A stretch of DNA of 64,000 bases from a virus: UHGV virus genome UHGV-0134778; one strand, 5' to 3'. The position numbers and the translations under genes are program-made. Below the pieces are notes generated by a model. That model made no database searches and was not told the DNA's origin. It worked only from the letters and a program-made list of their open reading frames with translations. This document shows, piece after piece, positions 899 to 40,539 of the stretch (the stretch's first letter is position 1; each line of letters starts with the position of its first letter).

Positions 899-2275
899 TT
901 ATTCAGTCATTGCAACAGCATTGGTGGATTTAGAACCAACTTTGTCCAGAAGGACGTTGATCCGGATACGAACGAAGTGCAGGGCGTTGTTATACACCAG
1001 TTCTACTTTCACACCTTCCAGAACACGAGCAGCCAACTGATTGGTTGGGATCTCTGCACGTTTAGGAACTGTGATGATCGGGTCGTAGAACACATTGTTG
1101 TCTTCGTCAAAACCTGTCAGGATCGCGCCATTCTTAATGCCAGTATTGATCGGGTTGTTCATCAGAACAGATTTGATAACCGGAAGATCATCATCAGACA
1201 TCTTCATGCTTAAACCCATGTTGGAGCGGCGATGCATGTACCCAAACATGGATTCTTCAGATCTGAACTTGATCCAGTGTGCAAAACGAATAGCGTCTGC
1301 ATACTGACCTGAAGCACACTTACCTTCCCAGAAAGCGCCAACACCGTTAATCATTCTGTAGAAGTTAACGTGGTTTTCCCAAATCGCCATACGCTGAGTT
1401 AAAGTCAGAGATGGTGCAATCACACCCGGCATCTGTTTTAAGTGCAAGCTGTCACCGTAGGACGGATCGTTGGATGCCATAGCACCTATGATACCACCCT
1501 CCGGGAAGTCCTTATCTGCACGAGGATCGTACATGCCAACACTGTCATATTGTGCAGCTTTCAGTTTGGTAGCGATGTTACTATCTTTGCCAGTCACATC
1601 TTCTGCAGTAGAGTAGACATGGAGCTTGTAGTTAGCCTGAGCCCACTTAGCACATGCTTCAATGTCGGTGTGGTCTTCATGGCACAGGAAGTACCAATTG
1701 TCACGCTCAGCATTGATCTTATCAACTACTGTAGAAGGTTTTTCAGTATTGGCGATATTTTTGATTGTATAGTTACCAGTATGATAACCAACAGTACAGT
1801 CACCAGTGATGGTGATAACACCTTCAGAAGCCTCCACAGTGATATCTTCCAAGTTATCATCTGCTTCGATTTTAGTCTTCATTGATTCTGCAATCTGAGT
1901 TGCAGCTGTTCCACCAGAGATAGGAACTATCAAAGAGGTATTGTAGCCACCTTTTGCAATAGTCATTACGACATCGGTATCGGCTGCGGCAGCAATACCC
2001 TTAAAGTCTACAGTGGTTTTTTCTTTGGCCTGTCTGCCGATCATAACATATTGTGGAGGGAATACACCACCAAAAGCTTTTGCTGCAAACTCATACGCTG
2101 CAGAGCCTTGTGCGAAACCATCTTCCACCATCTGATCCAGCTCCGCATATACGCGAGCTCGCTCAGTAAAGTTGTTGTGGATAGCGATGAACAGGGGAGT
2201 TTCGAAACCTACAGTGTCAATAGGTTGGGTTCCGAGGTTAACTGTAACATCTACCACTTTATCTAAATATGGCAT
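899..2275 (-). CDS. putative tail sheath protein
   Basis: 458-aa ORF at the distal end of the head-to-tail gene order, followed by a ~150-aa ORF; assignment by synteny and size only; alternative is another major structural protein. Confidence 0.45.
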   Translation of the reverse strand: MPYLDKVVDVTVNLGTQPIDTVGFETPLFIAIHNNFTERARVYAELDQMVEDGFAQGSAAYEFAAKAFGGVFPPQYVMIGRQAKEKTTVDFKGIAAAADTDVVMTIAKGGYNTSLIVPISGGTAATQIAESMKTKIEADDNLEDITVEASEGVITITGDCTVGYHTGNYTIKNIANTEKPSTVVDKINAERDNWYFLCHEDHTDIEACAKWAQANYKLHVYSTAEDVTGKDSNIATKLKAAQYDSVGMYDPRADKDFPEGGIIGAMASNDPSYGDSLHLKQMPGVIAPSLTLTQRMAIWENHVNFYRMINGVGAFWEGKCASGQYADAIRFAHWIKFRSEESMFGYMHRRSNMGLSMKMSDDDLPVIKSVLMNNPINTGIKNGAILTGFDEDNNVFYDPIITVPKRAEIPTNQLAARVLEGVKVELVYNNALHFVRIRINVLLDKVGSKSTNAVAMTE

Positions 2276-8400: not shown

Positions 8401-9957
8401 TTAATTTTCCATGTTAGATATGGAATTATCTCTGGTCGATGACATCTTAGAAGTGCCGTTGCCAGTGGATCCTGCAGCCATACCATCACCAGCCCTGCTG
8501 ATGTCCTGGCCCAAGAGCTTCATCAGCTCTTCCTGATCCATGTCTTCGTCAAATCTTTCATCAAACCCGCCTACTTCAAGAATCTTATTAATTACTGCAG
8601 GAGTTTTTGGCAAGTAACCTACAGCACCGATCCTCTGGACAAACTTGGAGAAGCTCTCCATGTCCACTTCTTCAATCAGACCAGGTTTCAGTTTAGGCAT
8701 ATCATCATCTTCAAGGATGATACCATTCAATGCCAGAAGCTGTGGAATAAGATCTTTATTGAAGGCCTCAGTGATAATATCTATATCACGCTGAACAAAA
8801 TGACCATGAATGGACTGTTTTGACTCAGACAGAGAGAAGGATCCGACGTTATCGTTACCGAGGTTAATAAATCCAGCACCGAAACGGTCAAGAATCGCCT
8901 TCTTACGGGCATCAATCAAATCTTTAGTAGAATACTGCTTACCCATACCATCAACCCCCTTCAGGGTCATGGAGTAAAGCTCTTTACCAGACTTATCTCT
9001 ATCAGACGGAAGTATAAAGAAACTTTGCTCCCCACTATGGGCGTTTGCTGCGTCCAACATAAGATCTGCAACCATTCTCCCTTCCATCGAATTCGGGTCA
9101 ATGCTGGCCTTGTTCAAAATATTGGAAGGAATTTTCAGCTCAAGCACACCACCAAGGTCTTTGGAGCAGCCAACAACCTCAAGGTTTTCAATCAAAACTT
9201 TCTCACGGAAAGATCTGTAGCAACCTATCATCGGTGACACACCTGCAGGATTAGATTCTGTTCCTGACAGAGTCATGAGCATAAGCTTTTTAGCAGGAAT
9301 GAAAATTTCAGGCTCATTAAAGCCTTTTGAAGGCATTGCAGCGAGAGGTCCAGCCCAGCGTGCATTCTGAGTGTTTAGAAATGCATTAGGTGACTGATAA
9401 ATACCTGTCAGTGTTCTGCTATTCTTGTCAAAGACAAACGGCTCTGATCTGGACAAACTGGCCTGTGGTCGGAATGCAATTTTATCAATAAGAAGCATCC
9501 CGGCATATTTACCTTCTTTCTCTCTGCGGTATACTTTCTCAAACAGTGAAAAACCATACTCGTTAAAGGTAGCTGCGCTTCTTGCAATATCTCGAAGAGT
9601 TTGTTGGTTTGCCAAATTACGCAAAGAATACTCTATAAGCTCGGCGGCTTTCTTAGAGTCTTCACTTTTAACATTATAAAGGATCTTAAAATCATTGAAT
9701 GCTTTCGTGATGAAAACATATTTTGTATCTAAGGCAGTAGCAACTGTGGAATCACATTTCATAGTCTCCACTGTGGCAATCAGCTGAGGCCAACGCAATT
9801 CCTCAACCATCATAGATTGTGATTCTGCCATAATTTGGGAAAGTGCGCCAGAACCGATCTCACTCATACGAACATTATGAGTTGGTGCGCCTGCGTTCCC
9901 AGATTTATTCACAGTTTTGGCTGTGGCGTTGTGTTTCCTGCGGTTCTTTTTGGACAC
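8401..9957 (-). CDS. portal protein
   Basis: 518-aa ORF immediately downstream of the large terminase and upstream of protease/scaffold/capsid; size and synteny. Confidence 0.65.
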   Translation of the reverse strand: MSKKNRRKHNATAKTVNKSGNAGAPTHNVRMSEIGSGALSQIMAESQSMMVEELRWPQLIATVETMKCDSTVATALDTKYVFITKAFNDFKILYNVKSEDSKKAAELIEYSLRNLANQQTLRDIARSAATFNEYGFSLFEKVYRREKEGKYAGMLLIDKIAFRPQASLSRSEPFVFDKNSRTLTGIYQSPNAFLNTQNARWAGPLAAMPSKGFNEPEIFIPAKKLMLMTLSGTESNPAGVSPMIGCYRSFREKVLIENLEVVGCSKDLGGVLELKIPSNILNKASIDPNSMEGRMVADLMLDAANAHSGEQSFFILPSDRDKSGKELYSMTLKGVDGMGKQYSTKDLIDARKKAILDRFGAGFINLGNDNVGSFSLSESKQSIHGHFVQRDIDIITEAFNKDLIPQLLALNGIILEDDDMPKLKPGLIEEVDMESFSKFVQRIGAVGYLPKTPAVINKILEVGGFDERFDEDMDQEELMKLLGQDISRAGDGMAAGSTGNGTSKMSSTRDNSISNMEN

Positions 9958-10059
9958 AAGCTTTACCCCTCAAAACAGTATAACAAAATAGCCCTCGTGT
10001 CAGAGGGCTAGTATCTCCGATTACTCTATTCTACCACATCTAATTAAGATTGGCAACAC

Positions 10060-10866
10060 TTAGATAAAACGCTTGAACATAGAAGGTGATGAGATTGATG
10101 GAATCACACAAGGCAGCGCTACCTCCTCTTTCTCCAGGAAATTAATCGCAGAAGCTACACAGTCGGCCCAGTCGTCTTTTCTGTTAAATGTTGATCTTTC
10201 CCCGTTGAACTTTTCAAGTTCAGTCAGAAATGCTTCCAGAGTGTCAGGATGGAAACTGGATTTTACAATCCTCACCATTCCTTGTTGGGCAAGATTGGCA
10301 AAAGGTGAGAACCTTGTCAGTTTAGATTTGTTGGAAGGCATTGGATCTTCTTCAACCCTGAACCCTTCGGCGAGCAAGGATCTGGACGAGGTTAAGAATT
10401 CACTCTTACCTGCCTGACCGGGGTCCACAGAAAATACGATTATGCAATCATCTCCATCAAACTGCGCCTGTTTCCTGATGATCACATCTCGTTCCCCAGC
10501 CTTTTTACAGAACTTGCCTTCCAGACCTGTGGAATACCTACCGTCATCCACGTTCTCAGGACAATAATCCCCGGACAGGTAATAAAAGCCGTCGCTATCT
10601 TTACTTACCTTAACACTGGCGGTAAAGTCAGGAAATTTATTACCGGAAGTTCTCTCGGTTCCTGCCTTATCCCATGCCCTGCAAGATACTGATCCAAGAG
10701 GTACTCTATCGGCATCCCGAAGGAAAGATCTTTGGAAATAGTTTGCACCTTCAGGTTTGGCAAACCAGTTGCCATGAAGAAGCTGGGCTTTTTCAAGCTC
10801 TGGCAGACCTTCAAGGAAAGCAAGGTATTCTGGGTTGTCTCTCAAGCAGACAGGATTATCGAATCC
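10060..10866 (-). CDS. terL: terminase large subunit, C-terminal nuclease part (exon 2 or separately translated fragment)
   Basis: Open frame continues upstream of the ORF-track TTG start to a stop at about 10867; no convincing RBS of its own; acidic residues spaced as in terminase RNase-H-like nuclease domains. Confidence 0.6.
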   Translation of the reverse strand, partial: GFDNPVCLRDNPEYLAFLEGLPELEKAQLLHGNWFAKPEGANYFQRSFLRDADRVPLGSVSCRAWDKAGTERTSGNKFPDFTASVKVSKDSDGFYYLSGDYCPENVDDGRYSTGLEGKFCKKAGERDVIIRKQAQFDGDDCIIVFSVDPGQAGKSEFLTSSRSLLAEGFRVEEDPMPSNKSKLTRFSPFANLAQQGMVRIVKSSFHPDTLEAFLTELEKFNGERSTFNRKDDWADCVASAINFLEKEEVALPCVIPSISSPSMFKRFI

Positions 10867-11837
10867 TTATATTCAAGGGTGGTCGCAACACCACCCTCCG
10901 CACCATTACGTGCTGCTGCATGTTACCATGCAGAGTAGACTATATCACCACCCATCTCAGGGGTGCTTCGCTTTTCGAGCGCCATAAGCTTGCGCCCTAC
11001 TCCCTCTCGGGATAGTCGTTGAACTACATTACCAATCATAATTGTTTGAAATATAGGTGTAAGTCTTACGGTCTTTTATTCCTTTAACAACACTAAAACT
11101 TACTCCCCACTTCTTAGCTATTTTATTTACACACAAAGCCCTACCACTAAGATCCTCGCAGATACCTATTATCTTGTGCTCACTTATCCTATTAGAGGTT
11201 GGCACTTTTCTAAAGTTAAATTCTTTAGAAATATCTGGGTATACTGAGCCATTCTTTATACCACTTACAAGTGGTTGATTGACACCAAACATTTCACAAA
11301 TGTCTTTTACCCTTGCACCTTGCTCTAACAGCCTACATATTTCAAGAGCAGTGGCATCATCTAGGGACCTGTATTTATTGACATAGTCCTTTTTAAGTCC
11401 CATTTCATGAGCGTGATGTGTGTTTTCCTCAGGCGTTGTCCACTCAAGGTTCCATGCGGCGTTATTCAACTTATTGCCATCCAGGTGGTTTACTTGAGTT
11501 TTCACACTGGGGTTATCATTATCTACAAAAGTCATAGCAATAACTCTGTGGACTAGCACTTGGAACTTTTTCCCGCCCTCGCACAAAGTGACCATAGCAT
11601 AGCCAGTCTTTTTCTGCACATTAGGATGGAGGAATTTATTAGAATACAGGCTGTAAATTCTGCCATCGTATGTAGCACAATAATGATTGTAACCTAAAAA
11701 GCCTAAATTTTTCATTTCAAACATCTCCCTACTACAGGTTCGGAAGGGTAATTATAGCTGCTGATTGTCCGTTTAGCAATCGGATTTTCCAGCAATTAAC
11801 GAAGTTATTCGACGTGCATTTCTGCACGAAGCCACTA
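10867..11837 (-). mobile_element. putative group I intron carrying an HNH homing endonuclease gene, inserted in the large terminase gene
   Basis: About 970 nt separate the ATPase and nuclease halves of terL; GC-rich hairpin-forming sequence flanks a free-standing HNH ORF; exact splice sites not determined. Confidence 0.5.
11029..11724 (-). CDS. HNH homing endonuclease
   Basis: 231 aa with HNH_3-like motif (QVNHLDGNKLNNAAWNLEWTTPEEN) and a C-terminal DNA-binding-like region; embedded between the terL halves. Confidence 0.7.
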   Translation of the reverse strand: MFEMKNLGFLGYNHYCATYDGRIYSLYSNKFLHPNVQKKTGYAMVTLCEGGKKFQVLVHRVIAMTFVDNDNPSVKTQVNHLDGNKLNNAAWNLEWTTPEENTHHAHEMGLKKDYVNKYRSLDDATALEICRLLEQGARVKDICEMFGVNQPLVSGIKNGSVYPDISKEFNFRKVPTSNRISEHKIIGICEDLSGRALCVNKIAKKWGVSFSVVKGIKDRKTYTYISNNYDW

Positions 11838-12587
11838 TCATTTAATGGTTGCGCCTATGAACGAGAATGACAACGGTCTTGGCTTGATCTCTACGCCAAG
11901 TCCGTTAACCGTGGTGTATTTCTCTATCAACTCTTCTTTAGAGTCTCCCCAGATAAATTCGCCGTCGCGTCGGATAAAATACCTTTTCTTACCGCATTTC
12001 TCCGGATCTGGATACCCTTCATCGTCCAACCACCATCTAACCAGTTTGGCAAGCATGTGTTCTGAGTCTGGGTTACAGCTGATAACCATTCTTGATGGAT
12101 ACTTTGACTGAGATCGCAGACGAGACATCAAATAGTCTATCTGCTCCCATTCGAATTGCGTGCCTTCATCGAAGCAAACCATGGTGTACTCAAGGCCTTG
12201 ATGGTTAAGCTTATCTTGGACATACTCCATGTGGCAGTATTTTACAACGGCCCCTTTTTTGCTCCTGTCCCACTTGCCAGTGCTCGGATCAAACCGTGGA
12301 AAAATAAACTTATGATCCTTCTCTCTGAACTTTGGTTTAATGTTTTCAGGCAGATCACTGTAAATAGCTACTGCTTTAGGCCATAGACCACCCTCACCTT
12401 CCAACTGTGGAGTTGTTCTTCGGAACATAACCACAGAGCTGTGCGGGTCATCAATAATTTTAAGCGGCATTAGCTGCAAGAGGAACGACTTGCCAGACCC
12501 AGCTGCACCTCCGATCACCAAAATATCTGCATCGTTCTCTAGGATCATCTTCTGCTTTTCAGAACACGGTCCGTAAATCTTAGACAT
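11838..12587 (-). CDS. terL: terminase large subunit, N-terminal ATPase part (exon 1)
   Basis: Walker A GGAAGSGKS and Walker B-like MVCFDEGTQ; frame ends in a stop inside the inserted element. Confidence 0.75.
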   Translation of the reverse strand: MSKIYGPCSEKQKMILENDADILVIGGAAGSGKSFLLQLMPLKIIDDPHSSVVMFRRTTPQLEGEGGLWPKAVAIYSDLPENIKPKFREKDHKFIFPRFDPSTGKWDRSKKGAVVKYCHMEYVQDKLNHQGLEYTMVCFDEGTQFEWEQIDYLMSRLRSQSKYPSRMVISCNPDSEHMLAKLVRWWLDDEGYPDPEKCGKKRYFIRRDGEFIWGDSKEELIEKYTTVNGLGVEIKPRPLSFSFIGATIK

Positions 12588-12874
12588 TAACCTCTCTCCT
12601 TTGGAAACAGTGTTCTTATATAGTCTTGCAAAATGATCAATTTAGCTCTATCATTACTACAAGACAGGTTATTATCCCTCATAATGCCAGAATTCACCGC
12701 ATCTGGCGCACCTTTCTTCAAAGGGATAGCTTTAGCAGGTGGTTTCATAGCACCCTCGGGAGGTTTAACAATCAACCTTCCTACATCCGGAGGGTCAATC
12801 TTGTATTCTCTCTCAACGCTGGTTGCACACCCACACAATAACAAGCACAAAACAACCAGTGCAGTAACTCTCAT
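12587..12874 (-). CDS. outer-membrane spanin (Rz1-like lipoprotein)
   Basis: N-terminus MRVTALVVLCLLLCGCATS is a lipoprotein signal with lipobox Cys; Pro-rich; 4-nt overlap with the upstream i-spanin gene. Confidence 0.6.
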   Translation of the reverse strand: MRVTALVVLCLLLCGCATSVEREYKIDPPDVGRLIVKPPEGAMKPPAKAIPLKKGAPDAVNSGIMRDNNLSCSNDRAKLIILQDYIRTLFPKERG

Positions 12875-13691: not shown

Positions 13692-13768
13692 TGGTCTCCA
13701 CGGAGTGATTCGAACACTCGACCTCCTGATCCCAAATCAGGCGCTCTACCAAGCTGAGCTACGCGGAG
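13692..13768 (-). tRNA. tRNA-Pro (anticodon TGG)
   Basis: Hand-folded cloverleaf: 7-bp acceptor stem, D arm GCTC/GAGC, anticodon loop TTTGGGA, T loop TTCGAAT, encoded CCA. Confidence 0.85.
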
Positions 13769-13779
13769 TATTTATTATT

Positions 13780-13854
13780 TGGTGGCCCTGGGTGGAATTG
13801 AACCACCGTCTGGCGATTATGAGTCGCTTGCTTGAACCTTCCAGCTACAGGGCC
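13780..13854 (-). tRNA. tRNA-Met (anticodon CAT; elongator type, could be lysidine-modified Ile2)
   Basis: Acceptor GGCCCTG/CAGGGCC, anticodon loop CTCATAA, T loop TTCAATT, encoded CCA; G1-C72 pair argues against initiator. Confidence 0.8.
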
Positions 13855-13855
13855 A

Positions 13856-13931
13856 TGGTGCTGATGGCAGGACTTGAACCTGCAACCTATTGATTACAAA
13901 TCAATTGCACTGCCAATTGTGCTACATCAGC
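13856..13931 (-). tRNA. tRNA-Thr (anticodon TGT)
   Basis: Perfect 7-bp acceptor stem GCTGATG/CATCAGC, anticodon stem-loop ATTGA-TTTGTAA-TCAAT, T loop TTCAAGT, encoded CCA. Confidence 0.85.
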
Positions 13932-13935
13932 AAAA

Positions 13936-14034
13936 GGTGCTAGGTGATGGAATCGAACCACCTATGTATTCAACGACTACCTCGTCTATTTTCAGGATTA
14001 AAAATCCTCGCCCTTGCCAAAGGGCTTACCTAGC
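13936..14034 (-). tRNA. atypical tRNA-like element (99 nt): possible non-canonical tRNA or tRNA pseudogene
   Basis: Perfect 7-bp acceptor stem (GCTAGGT/ACCTAGC), canonical D arm and T arm (GGTGG-TTCGATT-CCATC), but A8-A9 instead of U8, an AGGATT-TTT-AATCCT hairpin in place of a standard anticodon arm, and a ~31-nt insert containing a second hairpin; no CCA encoded. Confidence 0.35.
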
Positions 14035-14132
14035 GCAATATGTTGACCATGTGGCTAGTCGGCGATGACGACTGTAACATTTGATAATCCGGTTCTGCTT
14101 CCGGCTTTCGCTTAATTACAAGGTCAACAATG

Positions 14133-14223
14133 TGGCGGAGAGTAATGGAATCGAACCATCATCGAGTCATCCTCAACGGGACGGTTTTCAAGACCGCTTG
14201 AGCACCATTGCTCCCTACCCTCC
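14133..14223 (-). tRNA. tRNA-Ser (anticodon TGA), class II with long variable arm
   Basis: Acceptor GGAGGGT/ACTCTCC with one G-U pair, anticodon stem-loop GCGGT-CTTGAAA-ACCGT, ~20-nt variable arm, T loop TTCGATT, encoded CCA. Confidence 0.8.
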
Positions 14224-14337
14224 TTTATAAATTACACTGATAATGACACTGATTTTCGAGCAGTTAGTGACTAGTATAAACGACGATAAATATCAATGTC
14301 ATTATCTGTATGATTTATGCATTTAAAAATATAAATT

Positions 14338-14424
14338 TGGTGGGGAGTGGTGGAGTCGAACCACCCGAGTCGCAATGACAATAGATTTACAGTCTACACC
14401 GCTACCTCTACGGGATAACTCCCC
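14338..14424 (-). tRNA. tRNA-Tyr (anticodon GTA), class II
   Basis: Acceptor GGGGAGT/ACTCCCC, anticodon stem-loop GTAGA-CTGTAAA-TCTAT, variable arm, T arm GGTGG-TTCGACT-CCACC, encoded CCA. Confidence 0.8.
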
Positions 14425-14428
14425 AATT

Positions 14429-14503
14429 TGGCACCCCGTACTGGACTCGAACCAGTGTCAACGGCTTAGAAGGCCGCTGCTTTATCCACTAAGCTAACAG
14501 GGC
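14429..14503 (-). tRNA. tRNA-Arg (anticodon TCT)
   Basis: Acceptor GCCCTGT/ACGGGGT with two G-U pairs, D arm GCTT/AAGC, anticodon stem-loop GCGGC-CTTCTAA-GCCGT, T arm ACTGG-TTCGAGT-CCAGT, encoded CCA. Confidence 0.8.
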
Positions 14504-37342: not shown

Positions 37343-37621
37343 ATGAGTTGTGAAAAATCTTTTTTCATTATCATCTACGGTAAGGATAACTGCCCACATT
37401 GTGTAAGAGCAAAAGAATTTGCAGTAAGCAAAGGTATACCTTTCGTATACAAGACGCTCGGTGAAGGATACACAAAAGAAGAGCTTATTGAGAAGTGTAG
37501 TCCATTTGTTCCCAGAACGTTGCCTCAGATCTTCTTGGAAAGCAACCTTGATAGTGTCCACATAGGTGGTGCTGACGATTTCATCTCTTTTGTTAAGAAT
37601 GGTCTTGGAGAGAAAAAGTGA
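37343..37621 (+). CDS. glutaredoxin-like protein (T4 NrdC-like)
   Basis: CPHC active site and C-terminal LPQIF ... HIGG pattern. Confidence 0.8.
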   Translation: MSCEKSFFIIIYGKDNCPHCVRAKEFAVSKGIPFVYKTLGEGYTKEELIEKCSPFVPRTLPQIFLESNLDSVHIGGADDFISFVKNGLGEKK

Positions 37622-38469
37622 AAGTTGTAAAACGGGACGGCAGAGAAGAGGTCTATAACGGAGTTAAGGTAATCAAGGCGGCAGAGTCCGCCTTACTTGA
37701 GTCTGGGCATACTGAAGAAGAAGCTTACCGGATCGCTTGTGCGGTTAATGAAGTTGTTGCCAACAATCTACCAACCGACCAGTGCACGATCTCTGTAAAA
37801 AATATCCATATCCTTGTTGAAGATGCTCTTATGGATATGGGTTTAAAATGTGCAGCCAGAGAATATATCCAGTATAGACAGACAAGAGATAATAACAGAG
37901 AGGCAGGTGGAAAACTGCTTGCAGATATTAGTGGCTTCTTGGATCGAACTTGTGATGAATTTACAAAAGAAAACGCAAATAAGCCCACTAATCATGTACA
38001 TACTCATCGTGACCTGCTTGCAGGTATCCTTAGCAAACACCTTGCATCAACACAGATACTGCCAGATCGTGTCTCCGAAGAGCACAACAAGGGATTCATC
38101 CATGTGCATGATCTTGACTATCTGATCAGTCCGTTAACAAACTGCTGTTTGGTGAATTATCCGGATATGCTGGAAAACGGATTCAACATTGGCAACGCCC
38201 ATGTCAGTAAGCCGAAGTCAATAGGGGTTGCAACAACAATCCTCAGCCAAATCTCTAGTGCAGTAGCTAGTGCTCAATATGGTGGTCAGACCATGAGCCA
38301 TATTGATCATTATCTGGCGCAGTATGCTGAAGCAACCTATGAGAAGAATCTTAAATTTTGTCAGGAACATTGGTTGCCAGATGCTGAGACTGTTGCAATG
38401 CAAATGACAGATAAAGACGTGTTTGATAGTATGCAAACTTTGCTCTACCAAATCAATACGTTAACTTCT
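37618..38469 (+). CDS. nrdD: anaerobic ribonucleoside-triphosphate reductase NrdD, exon 1
   Basis: ATP-cone N-terminus (VVKRDGREEVYNGVKVIKA) and NrdD N-terminal domain; frame hits a stop 9 nt later; 3' boundary inferred, approximate. Confidence 0.75.
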
Positions 38470-39270
38470 GTCAACGGTTAACAAACTGGCCGTTGTAAAA
38501 CTCTCCTAACCTCATAAGAGGGGTCGGTAAATCCGGCTAACGGGGAACGCTAAGGCGAAAGCTATGCCAATCCCGTGACTAGTTCTTACAGGAGTTGGAA
38601 CGGTTGTAACGACTAACGAAAGGCAGAGATGCTTGACAAACATTTCTGAACCGAGTAGTGTAGGGGTTAGTTGAAATACTAACTTCGAAATGGAGAGACT
38701 CTATGAAAAAGATCATTCTTAATGGTGAAGAATCGAACTACGTGATTGATGAGGTTGGAAACGTATACGGAAAACGTGGAATGCTGCACCCCATATTGTG
38801 GGGAGGTTATGGAAAAGGTAACAAGCATGTCAAACGCCGCTATATGTATTCTTTCAACCACAAAGGTAAGAAGATTCGAATCCAAACTTCAAGGGTTGTT
38901 GCCTTGTATTGTTTGCCAGATGTCCCAGAAGACCCTGAAAACTGGGAAGTGAATCATAAAGATGGCAATACATTGAATGATCATCCGTCTAACCTGGAGT
39001 GGGTTTTGCCGGAAGATAATAAGAGACATGCTTTCCGAACAGGGCTTTGTCCAGGCAAGTGCTACAGGAAAGTGCAGGCATACCGAGGGAAAACCTTGGT
39101 GGGTGAATATCCTTCACTCTATGCCTGTGCAAAAGCCTTAAATTTGAACGTAGGGAACGTCCATAGGGCTATCGAAGGAAATGCCGAAGGTAAGCATCTC
39201 ACAATAAAGGGTTATTATCTTATTGAAGTAGAGTAAGAGATAGTCTGGCCCTGTGGAAACACAGGGGTGG
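38470..39270 (+). mobile_element. putative group I intron in nrdD carrying an HNH homing endonuclease ORF
   Basis: ~800 nt separate two collinear NrdD halves; 5' portion is GC-rich with hairpins, then an HNH ORF, then a short structured 3' segment ending in G before the exon-2 frame; boundaries approximate. Confidence 0.6.
38703..39236 (+). CDS. HNH homing endonuclease
   Basis: HNH_3-like motif WEVNHKDGNTLNDHPSNLEWVLPEDN; own GGAG RBS. Confidence 0.7.
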   Translation: MKKIILNGEESNYVIDEVGNVYGKRGMLHPILWGGYGKGNKHVKRRYMYSFNHKGKKIRIQTSRVVALYCLPDVPEDPENWEVNHKDGNTLNDHPSNLEWVLPEDNKRHAFRTGLCPGKCYRKVQAYRGKTLVGEYPSLYACAKALNLNVGNVHRAIEGNAEGKHLTIKGYYLIEVE

Positions 39271-40539
39271 AGACAGCAGACTCCATTCATCACATTAAGT
39301 TTAGGACTGGATACCTCAATCTTTGGTAGAATGATTACCAAAAACTACCTGAAAGTCCACAAAATGGGTCTTGGTGAAGAACGTATCACACCTGTGTTCC
39401 CTAAGGTGTTGTTCTTCCTGGAGGAGGGTATCAACATGAACCCCGAGGATCCTAACTATGATTTGAAACGATTAGCTCTGGAATGCTCTGCAGAGCGGAT
39501 TTATCCTGACTTCGTATCTGTACCACTAAATAGAAAAGTGACAGGTTCAACAGAAGGTAATGTCACAAGCATGGGTTGCCGGAGTTTTCTTAGCAAATAC
39601 AATGACTTGGAAACAGGAGAGGAGAAATACCTTGGCAGATTTAACTTAGGTGTTGTTAGCCTTAACCTACCAATGATTGCAGCCAAAGCTAAAACGGAAG
39701 GTGTTGATTTCTTTGCAGTTCTTGACGAGTACTTGGATCTGGCCTACGAGGCTCACCTTGTAAGGGTTAACCGTCTAAAAGGAACAAAGGCAGGGCAGAA
39801 CCCCATCATGTGGTGTGAAGGAGCCCTTGCTCGCCTGGATCCTGAAGAGAGTATTGATAAACTTTTCTATGACGGGTATGCTTCCATAAGTATTGGATAT
39901 ATTGGTGTGTATGAAACCTGCCAGATTTTAGGCAGAGAGGGAGACAAGTCCTTAGCTCTTGGGATCCTTCAGCACATGAAAGACGCTTGTGATCGGTACA
40001 AAAAAGAAAGTGGTCTGGCATTCAGCTTGTACGGCACTCCTTCAGAGAGCTTGTGCTATAAGGCTGCAACATGTCTAGATCGTGAATATCCTGAAGTGTT
40101 GAAGCACGAGCACGAATACCTTACCAACAGTTTCCACCAGCCCGTGTGGATCAATAGTTCACCTTTTGACAAGTGGAAGTATGAGGAAGGTTTTGCTATG
40201 ATCTCTTCTGGCGGCAACATTGGATACATAGAAACACCTAACCTGAAAAACAACCCGGATGCTTTGGAAGCCCTTGTCGATTTCGGGTATAAACACATTA
40301 TGTATTTTGGTATTAACCAACCTGTGGATAAATGCCTTAAGTGTGGATTCTCTGGTGAGTTCAGTGCAACAGCTAAAGGCTTTGTATGCCCAGAGTGTGG
40401 AAACCATGAAGAAGGAACGATCAGCGTGATTAGACGTGTATCTGGGTATTTGTCTAGTCCAAACTCCCGTCCTTACAACAAAGGTAAGCAAGCGGAAGTT
40501 ATAGAACGGGTTAAGCACTACGGAAGTTGTGGTTGCTGA
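39271..40539 (+). CDS. nrdD: anaerobic ribonucleoside-triphosphate reductase NrdD, exon 2
   Basis: Glycyl-radical motif RVSGYLS near the C-terminus and zinc-site cysteines CLKCG ... CPECG; continues NrdD sequence from exon 1. Confidence 0.75.
   Translation, partial: RQQTPFITLSLGLDTSIFGRMITKNYLKVHKMGLGEERITPVFPKVLFFLEEGINMNPEDPNYDLKRLALECSAERIYPDFVSVPLNRKVTGSTEGNVTSMGCRSFLSKYNDLETGEEKYLGRFNLGVVSLNLPMIAAKAKTEGVDFFAVLDEYLDLAYEAHLVRVNRLKGTKAGQNPIMWCEGALARLDPEESIDKLFYDGYASISIGYIGVYETCQILGREGDKSLALGILQHMKDACDRYKKESGLAFSLYGTPSESLCYKAATCLDREYPEVLKHEHEYLTNSFHQPVWINSSPFDKWKYEEGFAMISSGGNIGYIETPNLKNNPDALEALVDFGYKHIMYFGINQPVDKCLKCGFSGEFSATAKGFVCPECGNHEEGTISVIRRVSGYLSSPNSRPYNKGKQAEVIERVKHYGSCGC

Follow-up and report, generated by a model that had tools for sequence, protein, structure and literature searches.

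The window analyzed here is a 64,000-nucleotide (nt) stretch of the virus genome UHGV-0134778, and its large terminase gene (terL), on the minus strand, is interrupted by an insertion that contains an HNH endonuclease gene. In BLAST comparisons, Escherichia phages HdK5, PDX and rV5, along with further Vequintavirus members, show 96-97% identity over the 2.9-kb region around terL, and its sequence places the phage of this window in that genus, as an rV5-like E. coli phage. The terL/HNH locus is preceded by two overlapping spanin genes and followed by a portal-like gene, and it comprises the following elements, listed in the coding direction.

11845..12587, minus strand: terL exon 1, 743 nt, ATPase domain with Walker A motif (Terminase_6N; colinear with nt 1-743 of the terL of phage Murica)
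10865..11844, minus strand: predicted group I intron, 980 nt, IA-type P1-P9.2 with P7.1/P7.2 (Murica comparison, RF00028, covariation, minimum free energy (MFE) folding)
11838..11840, minus strand: in-frame TGA 5 nt into the intron, at which translation of unspliced mRNA would stop after 249 amino acids (...GATIK)
11025..11756, minus strand: open reading frame (ORF) cassette, 732 nt, which takes the place of the 21-nt P6a hairpin of the ORF-less copies (VB-EcoM-WM, RudolfGeigy)
11725..11729, minus strand: Shine-Dalgarno sequence GGGAG, 9 nt upstream of the HNH start, in a region conserved in homologues
11029..11715, minus strand: HNH endonuclease gene, 228 amino acids, I-HmuI homologue with putative helix-turn-helix (HTH)-like C-terminal modules
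10060..10864, minus strand: terL exon 2, 805 nt with the stop codon, nuclease (RNase H-like) domain (Terminase_6C; colinear with nt 744-1548 of Murica terL)

The ATPase ORF (12587..11838) is 249 amino acids long, contains the Walker A sequence GGAAGSGKS, matches Pfam Terminase_6N at E=5e-17 and ends in a stop codon (TGA 11840..11838). The nuclease ORF, which ends at 10060 and matches Pfam Terminase_6C at E=4.4e-7, begins directly past an in-frame TAA (10870..10868); a search of this ORF for a start found no ATG, and the sole candidate, TTG 10845, has no Shine-Dalgarno sequence at usable spacing. The original prediction had pointed out the Walker motif, the stop codon of the ATPase part, the in-frame stop before the nuclease part and the lack of an ATG and a convincing ribosome-binding site there, as well as the HNH ORF between the two halves and the hairpin-forming sequence on its flanks, and all of these are borne out here. 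The minus-strand gene very probably consists of exon 1 (12587..11845), a 980-nt intron (11844..10865) and exon 2 (10864..10060).

Alignment to an intact terminase and comparison with intron-less relatives, one of the checks suggested for the original prediction, places the splice point between U11845 and A10864. The reference was the intron-less terL of phage Murica, a single coding sequence of 1548 nt, which aligns to window positions 12800..11848 and 10864..9900 and leaves an insertion of exactly 980 nt. The bounds first proposed for the insertion, 11840..10846, are accordingly replaced by 11844..10865. When all 980-nt deletions over the junction were scanned for recovery of the Murica sequence ...GATIFDNP..., two succeeded, just one of which cuts after U and after G (intron 11844..10865). 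The alternative, with the splice shifted one base downstream (11844/10863), also recovers TIFD, but the last base of the intron would then be A instead of G and the cut would miss the U.G pair; it was rejected. The 3′ end of exon 1 reads ...GCAACCAU, its final U (11845) being the partner in the U.G pair of P1, and the intron ends in ...AUAUAAGG, followed by AUUCG, with its terminal G (omega-G) at 10865; the omega-G is also kept in phages 24-2-1 and UAB_1.

Removal of the intron yields a coding sequence for a TerL protein of 515 amino acids, in which 513 of 516 aligned positions (the stop codon counted) equal those of Murica TerL and which is colinear with the products of intron-less relatives such as Murica, B9-1 and FFH2. 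Each of the 11 spliced terL alleles that were built forms one open frame. The intron interrupts the codon for Ile248 (...FIGAT-I-FDNP...), between the ATPase and nuclease domains. In the predicted ligated RNA, ...ACCAU is joined to AUUCGAU...; at greater length the predicted junction reads ...GCAACCAT joined to ATTCGATAAT..., in complementary DNA form ...GGCGCAACCAT joined to ATTCGATAATCC..., and the peptide predicted across it is ...SFIGATI followed by FDNPVCLR. The corresponding intron-less site, of the Murica/B9-1 type, reads ...GCAACAAT up to the insertion point and, beyond it, A or T followed by TTCGATAA....

A search with the Rfam group I covariance models had likewise been suggested as a check. 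The Rfam scan of the whole window at gathering thresholds returned tRNAs only; the intron is seen only with an E-value threshold, and the lack of a hit at gathering is therefore a false negative. In a 1.7-kb scan with the E-value threshold, RF00028 (Intron_gpI), whose gathering score is 50 bits, matches the minus strand at 11854..11493 (25.6 bits, E=5.5e-4), carried by the 5′ part P1-P6, and at 11161..10916 (31.7 bits, E=8e-6), carried by the 3′ part P7, P3′, P8, P7′ and P9. These E-values speak against a chance pattern, and it is the HNH gene, located in the P6 loop of the ribozyme, that splits the match in two. Since the score in the window is below threshold, the family assignment leans on ORF-less orthologues, and the copies of this intron in VB-EcoM-WM and RudolfGeigy give single full-length matches to RF00028 of 92.7 and 95.6 bits, respectively (E ~1e-23), above the gathering score. 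The Rfam alignment puts the P1 U.G wobble exactly at U11845, and the terL intron contains the Rfam consensus blocks UUCAACGACUA and GAUAUAGUCU. Other weak Rfam matches in the region (mir-2154, SNORD126, CRISPR-DR15 and GP20-b; E=5-9) were dismissed as chance.

The two halves of the predicted ribozyme, on either side of the ORF cassette, can be resolved into a complete set of helices.

11747..11848, minus strand: ribozyme 5′ half, helices mapped, counted and recovered by MFE folding
11848..11843 / 11837..11832, minus strand: P1, mapped; Rfam alignment agrees
11828..11824 / 11817..11813, minus strand: P2, mapped; Rfam alignment agrees
11804..11798 (5′ strand) and 10972..10966 (3′ strand), minus strand: P3, mapped; Rfam alignment agrees
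11794..11789 / 11764..11759, minus strand: P4, mapped; Rfam alignment agrees
11784..11781 / 11771..11768, minus strand: P5, mapped; Rfam alignment agrees
11758..11754 (5′ strand) and 11027..11023 (3′ strand), minus strand: P6
11752..11747 (5′ strand) and 11033..11028 (3′ strand), minus strand: P6a
10865..11033, minus strand: ribozyme 3′ half
11017..11013 / 10942..10938, minus strand: P7 (pseudoknot)
11012..11009 / 11004..11001, minus strand: P7.1, with a GAGA loop
10997..10992 / 10982..10977, minus strand: P7.2
10965..10961 / 10953..10949, minus strand: P8
10931..10927 / 10922..10918, minus strand: P9, with a GUAA loop
10913..10910 / 10903..10900, minus strand: P9.1
10896..10890 / 10883..10877, minus strand: P9.2

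In the window copy the core helices are all paired throughout, and an unconstrained MFE fold of its ORF-deleted core recovers all of the non-pseudoknot helices (z=-4.3). Covariation was assessed on the ORF-deleted cores of 8 homologues from Vequintavirus, Avunavirus and Justusliebigvirus, laid over a structure of 75 pairs that runs from P1 to P9.2. Standard pairs occupy 98.2% of cells, a percentage that is inflated by derivation of the structure from one aligned sequence, and 17 pairs have changes on both sides; none of 500 column shuffles reaches the observed pairing and compensatory values, and sliding the 3′ partners by 1-3 columns leaves 33-46% of cells paired and 0-5 compensatory pairs. 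The compensatory-pair counts are not explained by deriving the structure from one member of the alignment. Compensatory changes occur in P2, P3, P5, P6, P7.2, P9, P9.1 and P9.2, while P8 has a one-sided change only; P1, P4 and P7 are invariant, which makes P4 and P7 uninformative for covariation. In P1, CCAU-UA (the hyphen marking the splice site) pairs with UAGUGG, and the U11845.G pair is the same in all 8 homologues.

The presence of P7.1 and P7.2 between P7 and P3′ is characteristic of subgroup IA, to which phage introns usually belong. Here P7.1 is formed by UCCC and GGGA and capped by GNRA loops (GAGA, GCAA, GAAA or GUAA), P7.2 has 6 base pairs, two of them compensatory, and both L7.1 and L9 are GNRA tetraloops in all of the aligned sequences. 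By its modeled P7.1/P7.2 helices, the terL intron is classed in subgroup IA, its placement as IA2-like or IA3 aside.

The ORF housed in this structure is predicted from homology to encode an HNH endonuclease of the I-HmuI type. It matches Pfam HNH_3 with 28.0 bits against a cut-off of 24.8 (residues 54-99), and residues 8-151 align with I-HmuI (PDB 1U3E) at E=4.2e-12, including the H...N...N block ...VNHLDGNKLNNAAWNLEW...; it falls into phrog_59 at E=2.7e-50, with residues 8-228 covered. Matches to HTH_23, HTH_7 and HTH_5 at residues 116-151, toward the C terminus, are all below the Pfam cut-offs. ATG 11715 is the most likely start of the gene, which ends with TAA 11031..11029, inside the 3′ strand of P6a. 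An upstream ATG at 11724 was considered as the start and rejected: it is missing in UAB_1, the HdK5 protein is annotated from the downstream ATG, and the spacing of GGGAG fits 11715.

There is, then, a strong case that the terL insertion is what the original prediction proposed, a group I intron that carries an HNH homing endonuclease gene and is predicted to splice, here with phage IA-type architecture: removal of 980 nt restores TerL, the junctions have the canonical U.G pair and terminal G, the ORF-less orthologues are recognized by RF00028 as single matches, the helices covary, and the ORF is of the I-HmuI type. What we infer about catalysis, endonuclease cleavage specificity and homing is as follows. 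The transcript would fold into a P1-P9.2 ribozyme in which U11845 is held in P1 by its U.G pair with the internal guide sequence, and an exogenous guanosine bound in P7 would attack after this U. The released 3′-OH of exon 1 would then attack after the terminal G at 10865, joining the exons into an mRNA for the 515-residue TerL, whereas RNA that escaped splicing would give only the 249-residue ATPase fragment. The HNH gene in the P6/P6a loop would be translated separately, and its product would most likely nick or cut the intron-less terL of co-infecting relatives, with recombinational repair copying the intron into the cleaved gene.

This intron is already known: it is a near-identical copy of one that has been annotated and published in phage rV5. 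The rV5 record (NC_011041, DQ832317) gives terL as a join of three pieces (ORF64ABC), the second gap of which contains the HNH gene, ORF65. The paper of Kropinski et al. (2013; PMC3606486), which has a section headed "Introns in terminase", infers the rV5 terL intron from BLASTX and thanks D. Shub for having determined where the intron lies. Over the whole 2.9-kb region rV5 is 96.3% identical to the window, and its second terL intron has the insertion site, ribozyme and HNH ORF in common with the one described here; intron identity to the window is 96.8% in the typing-phage-5 and ECML-10 records and 98.5% in HdK5. The authors of the BASEL collection gave the terL of RudolfGeigy as a three-piece join, like that of rV5, and the LL12 genome announcement mentions a terL intron.

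Upstream of this intron, the terL of rV5 contains another group I intron, ORF-less and ~320 nt long (84.9 bits), the site of which is empty in the window at ~12161-12166. The upstream site (window ~12161..12166, minus strand) holds the ~320-nt ORF-less intron in rV5, SophiaRose and RudolfGeigy, while in HdK5 and ECP26 the element is ~880 nt longer and includes an endonuclease VII-like ORF. The terL gene of rV5-like phages is a two-site intron hotspot with several allelic states.

The downstream site, that of the window intron, exists in an ORF-less form in VB-EcoM-WM, RudolfGeigy/Bas52, JEP1 and Avunavirus Av-05, with the same core and 94-100% identity in the flanking halves. This form is 266-268 nt long (266 in VB-EcoM-WM, 268 in RudolfGeigy) and, in place of the 732-nt HNH cassette of the window, has a P6a hairpin of 21 nt; beyond this exchange, the introns of VB-EcoM-WM and RudolfGeigy differ from the window by few point changes only. 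The Av-05 copy can be used in part only, as its record (NC_025830.1; positions 1468..1699 and 1040..1133) is linearised inside the intron, with the 3′ remainder and exon 2 inverted nearby, an arrangement that is probably an assembly or orientation artefact of the deposited record.

More distant parallels are known from other phages. The T4 td, nrdB and nrdD (sunY) introns, of subgroup IA2, have a P7.1/P7.2 core and an ORF looped out from a peripheral helix (P6 in td), and they are present in some relatives and absent from others. They share with the window intron the phage IA-type core, the looped-out ORF and the presence/absence pattern, whereas their enzymes are of the GIY-YIG family (I-TevI, I-TevII) and their host genes belong to nucleotide metabolism and do not include terL. 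The SPO1 and SP82 introns (I-HmuI and I-HmuII) are phage group I introns with an HNH enzyme of the window's family, but they lie in a DNA polymerase gene of phages with a Gram-positive host, and I-HmuI has 174 amino acids as opposed to the 228, with putative extra HTH-like C-terminal modules, of the window protein. Group I introns, often with an HNH gene, also occur in the large terminase gene of Lactobacillus phage LL-H (Mikkonen and Alatossava 1995, as cited in PMC3606486), of Pectobacterium phage CB7, where splicing was proven by reverse transcription-polymerase chain reaction (PMC7344957), and of Bastillevirinae, in which phrog_59 is the commonest intron-encoded family (PMC11878797), but these have other insertion sites, and their ribozyme and ORF sequences are unrelated or only distantly related to those of the window.

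The P7-P9 part by itself (10865..11024, minus strand) is 70-88% similar to segments in or beside many unrelated phage genes, among them bnrdE of SPbeta/SPBc2, DNA polymerase genes of Xanthomonas, Ralstonia and Vibrio phages, nrdD of Vequintavirus and phi92-like phages, and the RNA polymerase beta subunit gene of 201phi2-1; from this similarity, the terL intron belongs to a broad phage IA intron family.

Of 134 phage records that match the terL region, 14 hold the intron with the HNH gene; the ORF-less form is found in 8 of 40 records among the matches listed, and most other matching records (>90) have a precisely empty site. A search with the intron alone found 31 records with 95-99% identical sequence, and many isolated, plaque-forming phages carry it at 96.6-98.5% identity. 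Distant-mode BLAST also detects the intron with its HNH gene, at the homologous position of terL, in Avunavirus 24-2-1 (78.5% identity, with 99% of the intron covered) and in the Justusliebigvirus phages UAB_1 and C3, of Stephanstirmvirinae (66-72% identity). Avunavirus and Justusliebigvirus share with Vequintavirus the terL codon at which the intron sits, and its occurrence thus crosses subfamily boundaries.

Exons were compared using the spliced coding sequences of 11 terL alleles, 6 with the intron and 5 empty. Those of the window are closest to the intron-less B9-1 (98.4%) and show their lowest identity to the intron-bearing rV5, SophiaRose and HdK5 (95.4-96.0%; 96.0% for rV5), so that intron presence does not track exon relatedness. 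Presence and absence at a single terL codon, incongruent with exon similarity, fits homing. At window position 11847 (exon position -3), a synonymous site in a Thr codon (ACC or ACA), all six intron-bearing alleles have C and all five empty alleles have A, and in P1 it is this C that pairs with the guide sequence. Such a pattern would be expected from co-conversion during homing or if P1 pairing were under selection, and the base at this position may also affect recognition by the endonuclease.

Several points weigh against the proposal of a self-splicing intron. As a single match, the window intron stays short of the RF00028 gathering score (31.7 and 25.6 against 50 bits); the covariation set is small, with its 8 sequences in ~5 lineages, and the derivation from one aligned sequence already mentioned bears on the pairing percentage; and P10 is weak, with 3 base pairs at best as judged by eye. 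A literature search found no splicing experiment for this terL intron, and the CB7 terL intron had to be set aside as direct experimental support, because its site differs (after ~128 codons rather than 248).

Among the competing explanations, the one that survives best, though it is improbable, is that the intron is genuine in origin but does not splice autonomously, being degenerate or in need of a protein cofactor or maturase. That the literature search found no splicing experiment is in keeping with this, as is the finding that one HNH-containing intron of CB7 was unspliced under the conditions tested (PMC7344957), and the 732-nt insert in P6 could slow folding. Against these considerations stand the full pairing of all core helices in the window copy, the invariance of P1 with its U.G pair, of P7 and of the omega-G over all homologues, and the maintenance of the intron, at the identity given above, in an essential gene of plaque-forming isolates. 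The T4 td intron, moreover, has its ORF in the P6 region too, and it self-splices. A non-splicing relic is therefore an unlikely reading of the terL intron.

Less credible still, and very unlikely, is that terL is truly split, with a free-standing HNH gene between ATPase and nuclease polypeptides that are translated apart and assembled afterwards, the alternative that accompanied the original prediction. Phage genes that are split and accompanied by free-standing endonuclease genes are indeed known, the T-even nrdA and DNA polymerase genes being examples; the exon 1 frame does stop 5 nt beyond the junction, and several GenBank records give the halves as separate coding sequences. This arrangement is contradicted, however, by an exon 2 that lacks a start of its own, by the intact group I core with covariation support that surrounds the HNH gene in its P6 loop, and by the 266-268-nt ORF-less copies, which still break the frame and would be senseless without splicing. 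Finally, the HNH gene adjoins terminase, and some cos phages use HNH proteins as packaging cofactors (Kala et al. 2014, as listed as reference 33 in PMC7344957), but that the protein is a terminase partner as in HK97-type packaging machines and not a selfish homing enzyme is scarcely conceivable, given that most close relatives lack the ORF, which is therefore dispensable, that some have the intron alone, and that the nearest solved homologue is the intron homing nickase I-HmuI and not of the HK97 gp74 type.

Elsewhere in the window, nrdD (37618..40539, plus strand) is split in a similar way into an N-terminal ORF (37618..38481), an HNH-like ORF of 177 amino acids (38703..39236) and a C-terminal ORF (39253..40539). 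The insertion spans roughly 38482..39252, and in a 1-kb scan the 3′ half of RF00028 gives a weak match at 39121..39266 (25.1 bits, E=4.5e-4). The full 2922-nt nrdD query is found in 28 of 121 related records, and most of the others precisely lack ~798 nt; the insertion is probably a second HNH-carrying group I intron. Some ~16-19 "Campylobacter phage" records (MG065656.1 and other MG0656xx, unannotated and marked UNVERIFIED) are 96% identical to rV5-like or phi92-like coliphages over terL and nrdD, and their host label looks unreliable. A tRNA cluster at 13695..14503 (minus strand), just upstream of the lysis/terminase block, contains six tRNAs above the Rfam threshold and two sub-threshold "tRNA-Sec" matches (14137..14223 and 14342..14424) that are probably tRNAs with long variable arms.

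In practical terms, the terL pieces should be annotated as one joined coding sequence (12587..11845 plus 10864..10060) with the HNH gene as intronic; many GenBank records of rV5-like phages still give two or three separate "terminase" fragments. Biologically, the terL intron is nothing new in kind. It could be, as a speculative possibility, that the intron and its I-HmuI-like nickase go beyond selfishness and serve rV5-like phages as a weapon of interference (marker exclusion) during co-infection, and that the ORF-less and ORF-bearing lineages record an independent invasion of an older 266-nt ribozyme at P6 by the endonuclease cassette. At one codon of an essential gene, these phages present a natural series of empty site, ORF-less intron, and intron with HNH gene, and this three-state series could serve as an E. 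coli system for the study of homing, co-conversion and phage-phage competition.

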